From NCBI GenBank assembly GCA_903886255.1, contig CAISLM010000072.1, forward strand, positions 18,648 to 82,647: 64,000 bases of DNA. The letters run 5' to 3'. The position numbers and the translations under genes were made by a program. Origin of the DNA: Candidatus Collierbacteria bacterium. Lineage in GTDB: Bacteria; Patescibacteriota; Microgenomatia; UBA1400; MFAQ01. How positions within the stretch are numbered: the stretch's first letter is position 1; each line of letters starts with the position of its first letter. A model generated the notes under the pieces. It was not told the origin of the DNA, did not search any database, and was given only the letters and a program-made list of their open reading frames with translations. Shown piece by piece: positions 16,437 through 64,000 of this stretch.

Positions 16437-16894
16437 ATTTTGTCTGATTCCATAATGATTGTGACTGGACCATTTAGGTTTGAATCTATTTTCATATGCT
16501 CTCCAAAATAACCTGTTTTAACGGGCAGTCCAGCTTCTGTAAGTTTAACAGTAAATAGATCATAAAGTTTTACGGCAAGTTCTTTGTCTGCAGCAGCAAA
16601 AAAATCAGGCCGGTTACATTTTTTAACATTTCCGAAAAGAGTAAATTGAGATATTAGCAGAACTTCACCACCAATAGTTTTTACATCAAGATTCATTTTC
16701 TTATTATCGTCCGGGAAAACTCTGAGTTTAATTATTTTCTTAATTAATTTGTTGACATCCACTTCTGAATCGAGTCGGGAAACTCCCAAAAATACCACCA
16801 AACCTTTGTCAATTTTTCTCTCGGTTTCTTTGAGCTTGCCAAAAATGGATACACTGGCTTGGTCAACTACTTGAATGACAACAATCATATGCAA
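16433..16894 (-). CDS. dtd: D-aminoacyl-tRNA deacylase
   Basis: Dtd family pattern (MIVVIQVVDQASV...LLISQFTLFGNVKKCNRPDF...NGPVT). Confidence 0.8.
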   Translation of the reverse strand: MHMIVVIQVVDQASVSIFGKLKETERKIDKGLVVFLGVSRLDSEVDVNKLIKKIIKLRVFPDDNKKMNLDVKTIGGEVLLISQFTLFGNVKKCNRPDFFAAADKELAVKLYDLFTVKLTEAGLPVKTGYFGEHMKIDSNLNGPVTIIMESDKI

Positions 16895-16903
16895 TGATTA
16901 TAA

Positions 16904-17791
16904 TTGCTTGTGAGAATAAAACGTAATATTTCCATATTTATATTGGCTGCAGGACTAATTTTCCTGGCGATTTTTATATTCGAAAAAGACAATACGGCAA
17001 AAGAATCAAATTTTGCGGCAAAAAAACAGGGGGTGCTTGTCACTCCCGCCGTAACGCCGATTGCTTCACCATCGGCAACACCAACACCAAAACCCTTAAC
17101 GTTTGCCGAAATGAATCAGTTGTATGGCCCTTGTGTATCTTTGCCGGTATTGATGTTCCATCATGTTGAGGATTTAACAGCGGCAAAAACGGAAGGACAT
17201 TTGTCACTAACTGTGGGAATTGATTACTTTAAAAAAGACTTGGAGTATCTCACCAGTAAAGGCTACAACACTATTTCTCCGGAACAACTGATAAGTTTTT
17301 TTGACAATGGGGTTGCTCTACCGGCAAAACCTGTGATGTTAACTTTCGATGACGGATATGCGGACAATGGAACGGACATGTATCAAGCAATACTAGCTGC
17401 TAAAGTTAAGGGGACAATTTTTACACCAACAGGACTATTAAATAATCCAGGGTATTTAAATTGGGAAAAGATTAGAGAAATGGCCGGGTCAGGATTAATT
17501 AGCTTTGGTAACCACACATGGTCCCACAGAAATGTTGGCGGATCAGCTAGTGTAATTCAATACGAAATTACTACTGCGGACACACAACTTTCCGAACAAG
17601 GACTAAATAATCCAAAAATATTTGCTTATCCATATGGATTGGAAAGCAGCCAGGCGATAAAAGATTTGAAGACTTTGGGCTATAAACTGGCATTTACTAC
17701 AGTTAACGGACGAATACTTTGCGAAAAGAAAAGATTTGATTTGCCCAGGATAAGAATAGGGAACTCTTCATTGTCGAGTTACGGACTCTAA
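16904..17791 (+). CDS. Polysaccharide deacetylase (NodB homology domain) with an N-terminal membrane anchor
   Basis: NodB motifs (LTFDDGYADN and the HTWSH region). Confidence 0.75.
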   Translation: MLVRIKRNISIFILAAGLIFLAIFIFEKDNTAKESNFAAKKQGVLVTPAVTPIASPSATPTPKPLTFAEMNQLYGPCVSLPVLMFHHVEDLTAAKTEGHLSLTVGIDYFKKDLEYLTSKGYNTISPEQLISFFDNGVALPAKPVMLTFDDGYADNGTDMYQAILAAKVKGTIFTPTGLLNNPGYLNWEKIREMAGSGLISFGNHTWSHRNVGGSASVIQYEITTADTQLSEQGLNNPKIFAYPYGLESSQAIKDLKTLGYKLAFTTVNGRILCEKKRFDLPRIRIGNSSLSSYGL

Positions 17792-46303: not shown

Positions 46304-46331
46304 AGCCAACGAGGAATCGTTGGCTTTTTTT
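46304..46331 (+). terminator. Rho-independent terminator
   Basis: AGCCAACGA-ggaa-TCGTTGGCT (9-bp stem, GGAA loop) followed by TTTTTTT. Confidence 0.75.
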
Positions 46332-46379
46332 CTGGATTGCCACGGCACTTTGTGCCTCGCAATGACGGATTGAGGAATT
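46331..46379 (+). repeat. Structured short repeat, family A, copy 1
   Basis: TCTGGATTGCCACGGCACTTTGTGCCTCGCAATGACGGATTGAGGAATT. About 86% identical to the copy at 55061-55109. It forms a nested hairpin (ATTGC...GCAAT outer, GGCAC/GTGCC inner). Confidence 0.6.
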
Positions 46380-46945
46380 TAAAAAATGTCTTCAGGAGGA
46401 AGAAATTCTTCGCCATTAGCAACCTGGGGTTTATATTCTGTTTTTAACCATTGGACGTAGTCGCAGCCAGTAGCCTGTTTCGCTTCCCTATCCCAACCTG
46501 AGGTGGAACATTTTTTCATCTTTTTACCGGCAGCTGTTGTATATAAAACTAGAGGCTCGCCGCATTTGGGACATTTTTCGTCCAGCTTTTCGGTGGTACC
46601 ATTGATCCATTCAACATAATCACAACCAGTGGCCTTTTTTGCTTCTTTATCCCAGCCGCCGGCACTGCATTTTTTCATTTTTTTACCAAAACGGGTGACT
46701 TGAAGAACTAGTGGTGAGCCGCATTTGGGACATTTTTCGTCAAGGGTTTGGGGTTCAACTTCGAGCCATTTAACGTAATCGCAGCCGTCGGTTTTGTGAG
46801 TTTCTGTATTCCAGACACCTTTTGAACAACGTCTGAGCCTTCTACCTGTTGGGGTTTCTGTAACTTCAGCGAGTGGTGAGCCGCATTTGGGACATTTTTC
46901 TTCTTCCATGGTTATTAGATTAACACATTTGATGCAAGAAACCAA
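46379..46945 (-). CDS. Protein of three tandem topoisomerase-type C4 zinc-ribbon repeats
   Basis: Three repeats of (E)KCPKCGxPL...(K)C...GW...TGCDYVxW, resembling zf-C4_Topoisom. It is the last gene of the gltX-containing minus-strand operon. Confidence 0.55.
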   Translation of the reverse strand: MVSCIKCVNLITMEEEKCPKCGSPLAEVTETPTGRRLRRCSKGVWNTETHKTDGCDYVKWLEVEPQTLDEKCPKCGSPLVLQVTRFGKKMKKCSAGGWDKEAKKATGCDYVEWINGTTEKLDEKCPKCGEPLVLYTTAAGKKMKKCSTSGWDREAKQATGCDYVQWLKTEYKPQVANGEEFLPPEDIF

Positions 46946-54990: not shown

Positions 54991-55060
54991 TAAGTATCTC
55001 CTTCGAAATGAAATGTGCCAACTTGTTTTTGAATTGTAGCAGAAATATTATCTGGATTGC

Positions 55061-55109
55061 CACAGCACTTCGTGCTTCGCAATGACGAATGTGGAATTAT
55101 TGTAATTCC
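55061..55109 (+). repeat. Structured short repeat, family A, copy 2
   Basis: TCTGGATTGCCACAGCACTTCGTGCTTCGCAATGACGAATGTGGAATTA. The inner stem changes from GGCAC/GTGCC to AGCAC/GTGCT, which is a compensatory pair of changes relative to copy 1. Confidence 0.6.
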
Positions 55110-61152: not shown

Positions 61153-61455
61153 TTATCTAAATTCAATCTTTGTACTAGGTTTCACCTCAAAGACACAGGC
61201 AATGTTAATAACTACAATGTCTTTTCGGTCTCTTTTTTCATCGTACAGCTTGATTAGTTTAGCTTCGAGGTCTGCTTGGTCTTCAAAAACATAAGTTTCC
61301 GTCGTATTGATGATGTCGTCGTGTGCGGGATAGCCATGTCCGGGATTGGTTCTGGATCTTTCATCCCCTTCAACATGATGAGTTTCGGTTTTGAAAATGA
61401 GCAAAAGAAAATGGTGTTTTTGGGTGATATCTTGGGGAGAACTAACCTTGACCAT
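61153..61455 (-). CDS. Hypothetical protein
   Basis: ORF followed by a terminator; His-rich N-terminal half. Confidence 0.4.
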   Translation of the reverse strand: MVKVSSPQDITQKHHFLLLIFKTETHHVEGDERSRTNPGHGYPAHDDIINTTETYVFEDQADLEAKLIKLYDEKRDRKDIVVINIACVFEVKPSTKIEFR

Positions 61456-61560
61456 TCTTGCCTCCGTTTTGGACTGATTTAAGGTTCTTGTGCGTAATTA
61501 TAGCAAAACTGGCGAAAAATGCAACATTATAGGAGATTGCGACCACATTGACTGCGGTGT

Positions 61561-61662
61561 TTGATATAAGAGCTTGCTCTTATGTGGTTGGTATAAGAGC
61601 TTACTCCGCCTCCTTTCAATAACAGCTGTTATTGAAATGTCGTTGTGCGTTTCCTCTTATAT
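61561..61662 (+). repeat. Structured short repeat, family B, copy 1 (1.5 units)
   Basis: It starts with a mini-hairpin TATAAGAGCTTGCTCTTAT. A full unit follows: TATAAGAGCTTACTC + internal palindrome CAATAACAGCTGTTATTG + TTTCCTCTTATA. The outer arms TATAAGAG/CTCTTATA pair. Confidence 0.55.
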
Positions 61663-61699
61663 CTACGCCGATAACTATATTATCGTCTTGATATAATAT

Positions 61700-62025
61700 A
61701 CGTACTCCCGGGTGCTGGTGAGGAACGCCCCGCCTATGGCGGGGAGGAAAGTCCGGACAGCAAAAAGGAAGGGTGACCAAGGAAACTTGGTTCCATTTAG
61801 GGCGACCTAAGTGGCGCGATAGGGCCACAGAGACGAATAAAGGTGAAACGCTCTTGGATACAAGAGATTCCATAAGAGTAATTTTATGGAAGTGGTAACC
61901 CGCCCCGCTGCAATCGACGAATTGGGATTAAGGTGCCTTTTCCGTCCCAGAAGTCTCGAGCATTAGATAGATGTTCCTCCTAGACAAAATCCGGCTTACT
62001 ATGGCCCGGGGGTCCCGAAAGGGTC
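61700..62025 (+). ncRNA. rnpB: RNase P RNA (bacterial type A); boundaries approximate
   Basis: P3 hairpin CGCCCCGCC-tatg-GCGGGG, then the universally conserved P4 strand AGGAAAGTCCGGAC. Further 3': AAAGGTGAAACGC, GGTAACCCGCCCCGCTGCAA and ACAAAATCCGGCTTA (cf. ACAGAAyCCGGCUUA). A TATAAT lies about 10 nt upstream. Confidence 0.8.
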
Positions 62026-63040: not shown

Positions 63041-64000
63041 TTTGGAAATATTTTTTCAATTCTTTTATCAGCAAGTTTCTATCTATGTCTTTATCATACC
63101 AAACAATGTCATTTTGTTTTTTGAACCAGACAATTTGTCTTCTGGCATAGTCGGCTTCGGCATTTGTCCACTGTTCCACTAACTGATTTTTGGTTATATT
63201 TCCGCTTAAAAAGTTAATTATTTGAGATACACCAAGACCGGTATAGATAGGAAGAGTATGGTCCGGATAATTTTTGATTAATCTATTTACTTCATCGATA
63301 GCCCCTTCATCAATTCTTTTAATTACCCTATTTTTAATATTTGTTTTGAGTGTATTTTTGTCGGGCATTAAACCGATCCAACGAAAATTAACTTCAGAAA
63401 ATGGTGTTACTTGTATAAGAGCTTGCTCGTGTTTTGTCGATAACTGCGTTATCTTTACTAAACACTTGTGCTTCCTCTTATATTCGCTTGTAACTTCGTT
63501 ACAATGCTTGAATATGGATTCCGGGTCAAGCCCGGAATGACTTTCCGAAATTTCGATTTGCCTAATTAAACGACGGGGGTTCATTATGTCAGAATGGTTT
63601 AACGATGAGAATTTTTCAGGATTTTCTTTTTGCAATAGGCCTTGAAGTTCAGATAGAGATAATTTTTCCAATTTCTGACGTAATTTTTGATTGGGAGGAA
63701 TTAAGATATTGGAAAGATTTTGCGTAATGGCTTTAAGATAGAGCCCCGTACCGCCGACAATTACGAGAGGGGTATTTGTATCCTTAGAATTCTGAATTAT
63801 TTTTTGAGAGTATCGGACAAAATCAGCGAGATTCGCAGTTTCATCCGGTTCAAACAAATCGTGTCCGAAAATATTTATTCCTTTGGGTAAACTGTCCGGA
63901 ATATCCTTACCGGAGATTATGTCCAAACTTTTGTAAACTTGTCTGGAATCAACGGAAAGAATGTTAACTTTGGGAAGAGCTTTAGCTAATTGAAGTGCCA
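63033..64000 (-). CDS. miaA: tRNA dimethylallyltransferase, N-terminally truncated by the window edge
   Basis: The frame is open to base 64000 (…ALQLAKALPKVNILSVDSRQVYKSLDIISGKD = MiaA ADSMQVYKGMDIGTAK region). Downstream MiaA core motifs follow (LVIVGGTGLY, NPRRLIRQIEI). The ORF-track TTG start at 63926 is internal. Confidence 0.8.
   Translation of the reverse strand, partial: ALQLAKALPKVNILSVDSRQVYKSLDIISGKDIPDSLPKGINIFGHDLFEPDETANLADFVRYSQKIIQNSKDTNTPLVIVGGTGLYLKAITQNLSNILIPPNQKLRQKLEKLSLSELQGLLQKENPEKFSSLNHSDIMNPRRLIRQIEISESHSGLDPESIFKHCNEVTSEYKRKHKCLVKITQLSTKHEQALIQVTPFSEVNFRWIGLMPDKNTLKTNIKNRVIKRIDEGAIDEVNRLIKNYPDHTLPIYTGLGVSQIINFLSGNITKNQLVEQWTNAEADYARRQIVWFKKQNDIVWYDKDIDRNLLIKELKKYFQNA
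63411..63542 (+). repeat. Structured short repeat, family B copy 2 plus module C, lying inside the miaA coding frame
   Basis: TATAAGAGCTTGCTC + palindrome GATAACTGCGTTATC + TTCCTCTTATA, then hairpin TTGTAAC-ttcg-TTACAA, then ATTCCGGGTCAAGCCCGGAATGA. The last module occurs again at 55114-55137. Confidence 0.55.

Follow-up and report, generated by a model that had tools for sequence, protein, structure and literature searches.

A lineage-wide family of structured, directional repeats with a promoter-like 3' end, found upstream of rnpB and within miaA in Collierbacteria

The RNase P RNA gene (rnpB) of Candidatus Collierbacteria bacterium is preceded by a structured repeat that recurs on the same contig inside miaA, the gene for tRNA dimethylallyltransferase, which raises the question of what kind of element this is. 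The window analyzed here is a stretch of 64,000 nucleotides (nt) from that organism (assembly GCA_903886255.1, contig CAISLM010000072.1, positions 18,648 to 82,647). An earlier reading of the letters without database searches (the sequence-only reading) had proposed a miniature inverted-repeat transposable element (MITE)-like or repetitive extragenic palindromic (REP)-like element or a structured RNA family. Bacteria of the candidate phyla radiation (CPR, or Patescibacteria) are uncultivated, and to our knowledge almost nothing has been established about how their promoters function or how their small genomes change. The repeats proved to belong to a new, lineage-wide family of structured, directional, putatively promoter-bearing repeats with an unusual insertion anatomy, which we call cassettes. 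We favor, with a probability of roughly 0.6, the reading that the cassette is a mobile promoter, and our confidence in any specific mechanism is lower.

The full unit is about 100-105 nt long and comprises a 70-nt imperfect hairpin (hairpin 1), a spacer of 4-8 nt, a short second hairpin (hairpin 2) and a T(T/G)GnTATAAT box. The complementary arms, the palindrome and the mini-hairpin that had been described upstream of rnpB were all present between 61565 and 61685. The unit had been put at about 75 nt; the hairpin itself is 69-70 nt long, and about 35 nt more, covering the mini-hairpin and a box resembling TTGATATAAT, belong to the repeated unit. The outer stem of copy 1 is formed by TATAAGAG (61592-61599) and CTCTTATA (61654-61661), its hairpin 1 contains the conserved internal loops, and its apical part is the perfect palindrome TTTCAATAACAGCTGTTATTGAAA (61614-61637) with the apical stem TTTCAATAAC/GTTATTGAAA. 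Seven nucleotides separate the two hairpins, hairpin 2 (CGATAActataTTATCG) is followed by tc, and the box ends 9 nt before the 5' end of rnpB. The inner hairpin of copy 2 is GATAACtgcGTTATC. As had been claimed, the 15-mer TATAAGAGCTTGCTC is exact at 61565 and 63414; it occurs with one mismatch at 61592 and has no other close match in the 64 kb. Each hairpin unit in the window folds better than shuffled sequence (z about -5).

A half copy (TATAAGAGCTTGCTCTTATg), in which the left arm is fused straight to the right arm, lies just upstream of copy 1. It is itself a perfect 8-bp palindrome, is preceded by TTGA (61561-61564) and scored 19.9 bits against the covariance model with its interior deleted. 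The same form recurs at another locus (L111; labels of this kind are ours), and the arm-to-arm solo form of the cassette reads TATAAGAGCTTGCTCTTATA. The solo arm of the window is a remnant of an earlier copy at rnpB. No copies beyond these three were found in the window with 8-mer, 15-mer, repeat-finder and unfiltered covariance-model searches, and no cassette was present in the 9 kb past the window end, for which the sequence was taken from an identical metagenome scaffold. The rnpB gene downstream of the repeats was confirmed with Rfam; it is short (308 nt) and scored close to the gathering cut-off of 100 bits, as did the rnpB genes of relatives (108-119 bits).

Table 1. Cassette copies and adjoining features in the window.
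Feature	Position	Strand	Basis or remark
Solo-arm remnant (half copy) TATAAGAGCTTGCTCTTATg	61565-61584	+	Left arm fused straight to right arm
TTGG	61588-61591	+	Directly 5' of copy 1 hairpin 1
Copy 1 hairpin 1	61592-61661	+	70-nt imperfect hairpin; covariance model, 77 bits; fold z = -5.1
Copy 1 hairpin 2, CGATAA-ctata-TTATCG	61669-61685	+	Matches family position
Copy 1 3' box TTGATATAAT, extended -10-like (TGnTATAAT)	61688-61697	+	Sequence
rnpB, RNase P RNA, bacterial type A	61707-62014	+	Rfam RF00010, 110.1 bits, E = 8.7e-33
miaA, tRNA dimethylallyltransferase	63033 to beyond 64000	-	Pfam IPPT, E = 1.5e-44; runs off window end
Copy 2 hairpin 1	63414-63482	+	69 nt; covariance model, 64 bits; antisense to miaA
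Copy 2 hairpin 2 TTGTAACttcGTTACAA	63488-63504	+	Sequence
Copy 2 degenerate 3' box TGCTTGAATATGG	63505-63517	+	Sequence
Small palindrome ATTCCGGGTCAAGCCCGGAATGAC of a different repeat family	63518-63541	+	Adjoins copy 2 on its 3' side; within miaA, translated as HSGLDPES

The conserved arms and palindrome with a variable interior, noted before for two copies, characterize a multi-copy family with covarying stems in many genomes. A scan of one genome per species with the pattern TATAAGAGCTT-N38-62-CCTCTTATA returned 65 loci, about 50 of which were true members (68-75 nt) and the rest chance matches. All true members also contained GCTCG... and ...TGCGCTT, which the pattern did not demand. Members with exact arms numbered 51 copies in 24 assemblies (Collierbacteria, Woesebacteria and 'Patescibacteria group') plus the window, at about 1-6 copies per genome. 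A metagenome scan with the inner pattern, leaving the outer arms unconstrained, gave at least 120 loci, 99 of them unique among the matches listed. Pooling the genome copies with the metagenome matches listed yielded at least 158 unique cassettes, on which the family-wide counts below are based. The count in related genomes and metagenomes is therefore well over 150 distinct copies and not two only. A single 61-nt match in viral contigs lacked the inner motifs of the family and is probably due to chance. Several metagenome-assembled genomes labelled 'uncultured Pseudomonadales' or 'Spirochaetia bacterium' (CAYGCQ01, CAYHNG01, CAZUFH01, DATIKJ01 and others) carry the cassette in contexts orthologous to Collierbacteria loci, and their taxonomic labels look wrong. 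We found no description of the family in the literature on CPR, Microgenomates, leaderless mRNAs and palindromic repeats. The cassettes are a widespread, previously undescribed family of interspersed, non-coding, structured repeats specific to Microgenomates-type CPR bacteria.

Compensatory changes were clear in both stems. RNAalifold applied to the first 51 copies, aligned with MAFFT only, recovered the long hairpin, and 8 of its 19 pairs showed double compensatory changes; the G12:C65 pair in the conserved part was replaced three times by A:T and twice by T:A. When 109 independent metagenome copies were aligned to the model, 95.5% of cells were paired, and double changes occurred in 134 cells compared with 39 after column shuffling and 7-35 with slid partners. 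This second alignment was fitted to the model and is biased toward structure, and the MAFFT-only result agrees with it in direction. A perfect hairpin 2 was located in 147 of the 158 copies; its stem sequences mostly differ and are always complementary, and its loops span 3-19 nt. With the arms left unconstrained in the scan, the outer stem is secure over TAAGAG/CTCTTA; an A:T or G:T pair comes next, and conservation is lost at the outermost pair. Conserved unpaired nucleotides include the CTT/TTC and TCG/TGCG internal loops and a CTTCG that is frequent in the loop of hairpin 2. Since no free-standing combination of hairpin 2 and a -10 box was found in the window, hairpin 2 is assigned to the cassette and not to a general promoter design. 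Resemblances to DnaA-box, IHF, lox and dif sites were visible by eye in some copies and were not conserved across the family.

The unit is directional. After hairpin 2, nearly all copies have T(T/G)G, 1-2 bases and TATA(A/G)(T/A/G), which is the form of an extended -10 element; the sigma-70 extended -10 promoter is TGnTATAAT, 6-8 nt upstream of the transcription start. In 30 of 147 cassettes, hairpin 2 is followed at a distance of 16-23 nt by the start of a long open reading frame (ORF) on the same strand, with its ATG 6-9 nt past the TATAAT-like box and no Shine-Dalgarno sequence, and a mirrored control had no peak there. The genes that start at this spacing thus look leaderless. The mirrored analysis gave a smaller peak, of 15 divergent ORFs beginning 8-16 nt to the left of the left-arm TATA, suggesting that the left arm can double as the -10 box of a divergent leaderless gene. 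The downstream protein genes are unrelated housekeeping genes with no common function (MurA-like, a class II aminoacyl-tRNA synthetase, RpiB, RimK-like, MnmA, RecF, DnaG, TrmD, IF3 and a glycosyltransferase). Stable RNA genes are also frequent neighbors. Among the matches listed, a tRNA gene is found no more than about 100 nt from 26 of the 99 cassettes, and at least 10 of the 99 have a tRNA gene 56-97 nt after hairpin 1. One cassette occupies a 23S-5S spacer and has the orientation of both rRNA genes. The 3' box is inferred to act as an extended -10 promoter.

Cassette-free genes of the window have similar starts. About 20 of 70 crude window ORFs have TATAAT 5-8 nt upstream of the ATG and lack a Shine-Dalgarno sequence, which suggests that leaderless starts are common in this organism. 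Near 16900 (16890-16912), two divergent genes with start codons separated by about 26 nt appear to share a palindromic ATTATAAT box.

Part of the evidence for present or past movement of the cassette comes from the rnpB site itself. Among syntenic relatives this site is filled in L190, which has a cassette directly upstream of rnpB, and empty in L191 and L192. The empty site of L192, ..tTGAT|TTGGTATAATATAGGGACTCCCGGG, equals the L190 flanks minus the two hairpins, and it has TTGGTATAAT at the distance from rnpB that the copy 1 box has. The TTG of the 3' box is present at this empty site and absent from the cassette-free window promoters inspected. The L190 cassette is only 69% identical to copy 1 of the window, which is background level, whereas rnpB itself is 89% identical between L190 and the window; its identity to another cassette of the L190 genome is 90%. 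With a different subtype at the same site, the site was either occupied independently or converted. The intergenic region is variable in other respects. A 100-residue ORF with no Pfam match (61153-61455, minus strand) lies between an MscS-like gene and rnpB in the window; it is absent from L190 and L192, and L191 has an unrelated-looking 170-residue ORF there.

Further signs of mobility are found in the arrangement and flanks of the cassettes. In tandem arrays (L044, period 99 nt) neighboring units are joined where a -10 box runs into the left arm of the following unit; nested copies were seen, and solo arms occur in other genomes too. Copies also lie where a promoter makes no sense, including the antisense copy in miaA, one at the 3' coding end of the superoxide dismutase gene sodA (L068) and one between two terminator-like hairpin copies (L190). 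A target-site duplication had been proposed as a check; no duplication of fixed length was found, but direct repeats of at least 15 nt and up to 71 nt flanked 16 of 134 cassettes (12%), compared with 1 of 402 mismatched controls. Where present, flank duplications span 12-71 nt. The L187 cassette is bordered directly on either side by a 39-nt repeat, which delimits the unit as TATAAGAGC...GCTTGG-AAAA, with the 3' box included. A TA or TATA duplication around hairpin 1 was considered and rejected, the outer positions not co-varying between the two sides. The similarity of each copy's own left and right flanks (5.32 compared with 5.07 when permuted, p = 0.0025) is a small effect driven by tandem copies.

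Many of the duplications involve tRNA genes, with an intact tRNA gene beside a fragment of one that the cassette interrupts or cuts short. The fragments break in the D-loop (..GGATA|.. or ..GGT|TAGAG..) or at TATAA, sequences that resemble the 3' end of the cassette. In L020 (4135-4400), L066 and L163, a complete tRNA-Pro(GGG) gene is followed by a cassette and a second tRNA copy lacking the first 10 nt; the two copies in L020 are identical at 62 of 62 positions, and such fragments may be mis-annotated or missed. A different arrangement was seen in at least four species (L010, L039, L158 and L180), where a native promoter and leader are followed by CGGGGT(A/G)TA, the cassette, TATAG..(T/C)ACCCCGA and a complete tRNA-Pro gene. 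The flanks at these four loci form an acceptor-stem-like mini-helix that tracks the tRNA-Pro of the respective genome (CGGGGTG/CACCCCG or CGGGGTA/TACCCCG).

The second unit with the same arms was found as had been described, with a mini-hairpin of its own, but it lies inside miaA and not in an intergenic region. The whole of copy 2 is read in frame, antisense to its own orientation, as ..IFKHCNEVTSEYKRKHKCLVKITQLSTKHEQALIQ.., and its hairpin 1 translates in the miaA frame as YKRKHKCLVKITQLSTKHEQALI. From TATAAGAG to GCTTGAA it measures 99 nt, or 33 codons, without a stop codon. The full MiaA protein has 342 residues; its closest homologues (57-67% identity), from Collierbacteria, Woesebacteria and Microgenomates, mostly have 303-312 and are without about 30 residues exactly at the cassette site, a hypervariable linker between IEIS and F(H/R)WIGL (FRWIGL in the window). 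The stretch from NPRRL to WIGL is 67 residues long in the window compared with 30-31 in three syntenic cassette-free relatives, the insertion is missing from every relative examined, and synteny around the locus is conserved (recA-recX-rny-HU-miaB-miaA-perM-rnpB). This synteny and the source names of the MiaA homologues assign the locus to a Microgenomates-type CPR bacterium. Copy 2 is best regarded as a probably neutral, in-frame, antisense insertion in a variable linker, and it accounts for an otherwise puzzling 33-residue insert in MiaA. The inclusion of the mini-hairpin and promoter-like box in the unit, the directional association with promoters and the in-frame miaA copy had all escaped the sequence-only reading.

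Other inserts occur at the same place and in the same window. Other MiaA homologues bear different peptide-coding inserts (SRESGNLY and SLRVSPPLAGGGTPTRQSP) in this linker, and a 13-nt indel in miaA of L002 is only apparent, being a scaffold gap of Ns and not a polymorphism. The small palindrome next to copy 2 belongs to a second family with the ends (GG)ATTCC...GGAATGAC or GGATTGC...GCAATGAC, which is represented in the window at 63518-63541, 46328-46370 and 55048-55090. Palindromes of this family also abut the TATAG end of the cassette in L025, L070 and L134, which suggests an insertion preference shared with the cassette. A further repeat in the window (46443-46903) consists of three tandem units of about 159 nt with 71-76% identity, contains GCCGCATTTGGGACATTTTTC and is probably a repeated Cys-rich protein domain.

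Under the mobile promoter reading, the 3' box would fire into whatever lies 6-9 nt downstream, be it a leaderless ATG, rnpB, a tRNA gene or 5S rRNA. The cassette, to judge from its anatomy, would be or have been mobile and would land on sequences that resemble its own 3' end, such as -10 boxes, tRNA D-loops (GGATA|G) and occasionally coding sequence, often duplicating a long, variable stretch of the target. A recreated TGn-TATAAT box would keep the downstream gene expressed, which would explain why the cassette is tolerated and conserved. At rnpB, copy 1 and the older solo-arm remnant would occupy the promoter. The hairpins could be what a mobilizing enzyme recognizes, in single-stranded or cruciform form, or could act on the promoter by insulating or modulating it. 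We propose only tentatively that the cassette represents a new mechanistic type, namely a promoter-mimicking element whose T(T/G)GnTATA 3' end homes to -10 boxes and their look-alikes, which makes long, variable target duplications, lacks classical terminal inverted repeats and a recognizable transposase, and serves as a portable promoter for leaderless and stable RNA genes across a CPR lineage.

Several observations weigh against a mobile promoter. A scan for -35/-10 consensus promoters did not call the rnpB site, which has no -35 match, nor were terminators called near the repeats; what points to a promoter is thus the TGnTATAAT box with its spacing, both of them features of the sequence. 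Some cassettes fire into nothing sensible (one in L190 facing a terminator, L005 and window copy 2). No transposase was found near the cassettes in the contexts inspected, although whole genomes were not searched for one, and the unit has neither terminal inverted repeats as a whole nor a target duplication of fixed length. The long duplications could stem from palindrome-induced replication errors and not from insertion. The best-matching cassette belongs to a different genome in the case of 48 of the 51 copies, and orthologously placed cassettes are 84-95% identical between species compared with 70-76% for adjacent coding DNA. This conservation above that of coding DNA is more in keeping with a host element under selection than with an element that is purely selfish and was active recently. 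It is not the signature of a recent burst, and the cassettes have been either co-opted or homogenized by conversion.

The same conservation, with each copy keeping its own identity across species, also speaks for a rather unlikely alternative, a host cis-regulatory element upstream of promoters that is no longer selfish. By extruding as cruciforms or by binding a factor, its hairpins would tune strong housekeeping and stable RNA promoters, and the copies in genes or beside duplications would be by-products of palindrome instability. The conserved unpaired nucleotides, the enrichment beside tRNA genes, the positions upstream of rnpB and 5S rRNA and the low copy number per genome all agree with such a role. 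A host element of this kind does not readily account for the other subtype at the rnpB site of one relative and the empty sites of others, for the copies that are senseless as promoters, for downstream genes without a common function or for the fact that most promoters in the same genome are free of cassettes. It is improbable that the cassette acts instead as a structured RNA, such as a small RNA, a 5' leader or a processing signal (e.g., an RNase III substrate), that is transcribed from upstream and separates or stabilizes adjacent transcripts, the TATAAT-like box being incidental. The covariation is like that of functional RNAs, cassettes do lie in transcribed spacers (23S-5S, between tandem genes and downstream of native tRNA promoters), and co-transcribed Correia elements are RNase III substrates (PMC2649163, PMC10969869). 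However, neither window copy matched Rfam at the gathering threshold or even at E <= 10, many copies lie between divergent genes where no transcription is expected, and the distance of 6-9 nt from TATAAT to an ATG without a Shine-Dalgarno sequence fits a promoter and not a leader. The strand asymmetry of G:U and A:C pairs is inconsistent as well: the plus-strand excess stems from two consensus positions only, and the variable stems and folding energies lean slightly to the minus strand, contradicting the G:U count.

A role as the site of a site-specific recombinase, as in integron attC or Xer/dif systems, would make the folded hairpins the substrate and the adjacent genes or fragments cassettes brought in from elsewhere. 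The ATAAC...GTTAT hairpin cores, a structure conserved more than its sequence, junctions at a recurrent TATA-like core and partial tRNA duplications that resemble att-site scars point in this direction. We nonetheless consider it very improbable: by inspection the cores do not fit RYYYAAC/GTTRRRY, there were no cassette arrays or neighboring integrases in the contexts inspected, loop and spacer lengths of 3-19 nt are unsuited to Xer-type sites, and the duplicated segments vary in length and have no fixed core. Chance similarity of AT-rich, low-complexity strings, which the sequence-only reading had already discounted, is refuted. The 8-mer TATAAGAG is by itself only mildly over-represented (7 occurrences compared with 2.3 expected, and 2 of 100 shuffles reach 7), but the exact 15-mer common to both loci, covariance model scores of 64-77 bits and hundreds of homologous copies elsewhere, with covariation, are not expected from chance.

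For the study of Microgenomates, the cassette offers a recognizable tag for the transcription starts of leaderless, tRNA, 5S rRNA and RNase P RNA genes, and its more than 150 structured variants are a natural set for the effects of upstream hairpins on promoters. It accounts for partial duplicates of tRNA genes that could confuse automatic annotation. A new route of spread may also be at work, in which a small element homes to -10-like sequences, makes long target duplications and leaves gene expression intact.

Comparison with known elements places the cassette near several classes but outside the strict definitions of MITE, REP and attC elements. The likeness to a MITE or REP that had been proposed stands in that this is a genuine structured repeat family of such a character, but it does not extend to the strict MITE definition. 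The cassette is small, non-coding and multi-copy (about 100-105 nt, at least 158 unique copies), as MITEs are. The TAAGAG/CTCTTA arms bound hairpin 1 only; the ends of the unit as delimited by tandem arrays and flanking duplications, TATAAGAGC and ..GCTTGAATATA(A), are not complementary, and the bases outside TAAGAG/CTCTTA do not match each other as a fixed-length duplication would. Integron attC sites have RYYYAAC...GTTRRRY cores and form cassette arrays with an adjacent intI; the cores seen here, (C/T)(A/G)ATAA(C/T)...(G/A)TTAT.., lack the YYY, and the copies are dispersed beside housekeeping genes.

REP elements and bacterial interspersed mosaic elements (BIME) are palindromes of 20-40 nt that have a conserved tetranucleotide on the 5' side, occur in hundreds of copies and are accompanied by a RAYT gene, and elements derived from IS200/IS605 insert 3' of a fixed tetra- or pentanucleotide, have sub-terminal hairpins at both ends and make no duplication. 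Like REP/BIME and the IS200/IS605-derived palindromic elements (PATE), which are extragenic imperfect palindromes with covarying stems that are presumably recognized as single-stranded DNA hairpins, the cassette has two hairpins and no classical target duplication. Unlike these elements, it has no conserved GTAG-type head and apparently no fixed tetra- or pentanucleotide in its left flank. TTGAT precedes the cassette site in the window half copy, L190 and L192, and over the 99 copies among the matches listed the left flank is not conserved beyond TA, with positions -5 to -12 unconserved. The cassette is also far longer than REP/BIME (about 105 nt), has two unlike hairpins and a much lower copy number, and falls outside the REP definition. 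The long flanking repeats of 12% of the cassettes recall IS1634 and IS1549, which are reported to make long, variable direct repeats (8-514 bp) on insertion with no accepted mechanism (PMC2266710). The likeness is an analogy only, since those are autonomous elements of 1.5-2 kb that encode a transposase, and neither such a gene nor matching terminal repeats were found near the cassettes.

Rickettsia palindromic elements (RPE) occur as in-frame insertions in protein-coding genes that survive the insertion (PMC10969869), and window copy 2, with its 99 nt, its lack of a stop codon and its position in a variable surface linker of MiaA, is RPE-like. In contrast to RPE, the cassette is clearly in frame once among about 150 copies, with a second case at the 3' end of sodA, and is overwhelmingly intergenic, linked to promoters and found in a different phylum; the likeness is one of description. 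The closest functional analogues are the Correia elements of Neisseria (CREE/NEMIS), which can generate promoters at either or both ends and whose presence is strain-dependent (PMC2649163, PMC10969869). The cassette differs from them in having no evident sequence relationship, no TA target duplication and no inverted repeats at the ends of the whole unit, and in consisting of two tandem hairpins with a strict direction. Its copy number is about 10-fold lower, its copies are conserved across genera, and it is tied to leaderless ATGs and to long, variable flank duplications. What the two have in common is a small (about 100-150 bp), non-coding, palindromic element that lies mostly just upstream of genes, and the cassette resembles Correia elements further in the -10-like box at its end and in a left-arm TATA that may serve a divergent gene.

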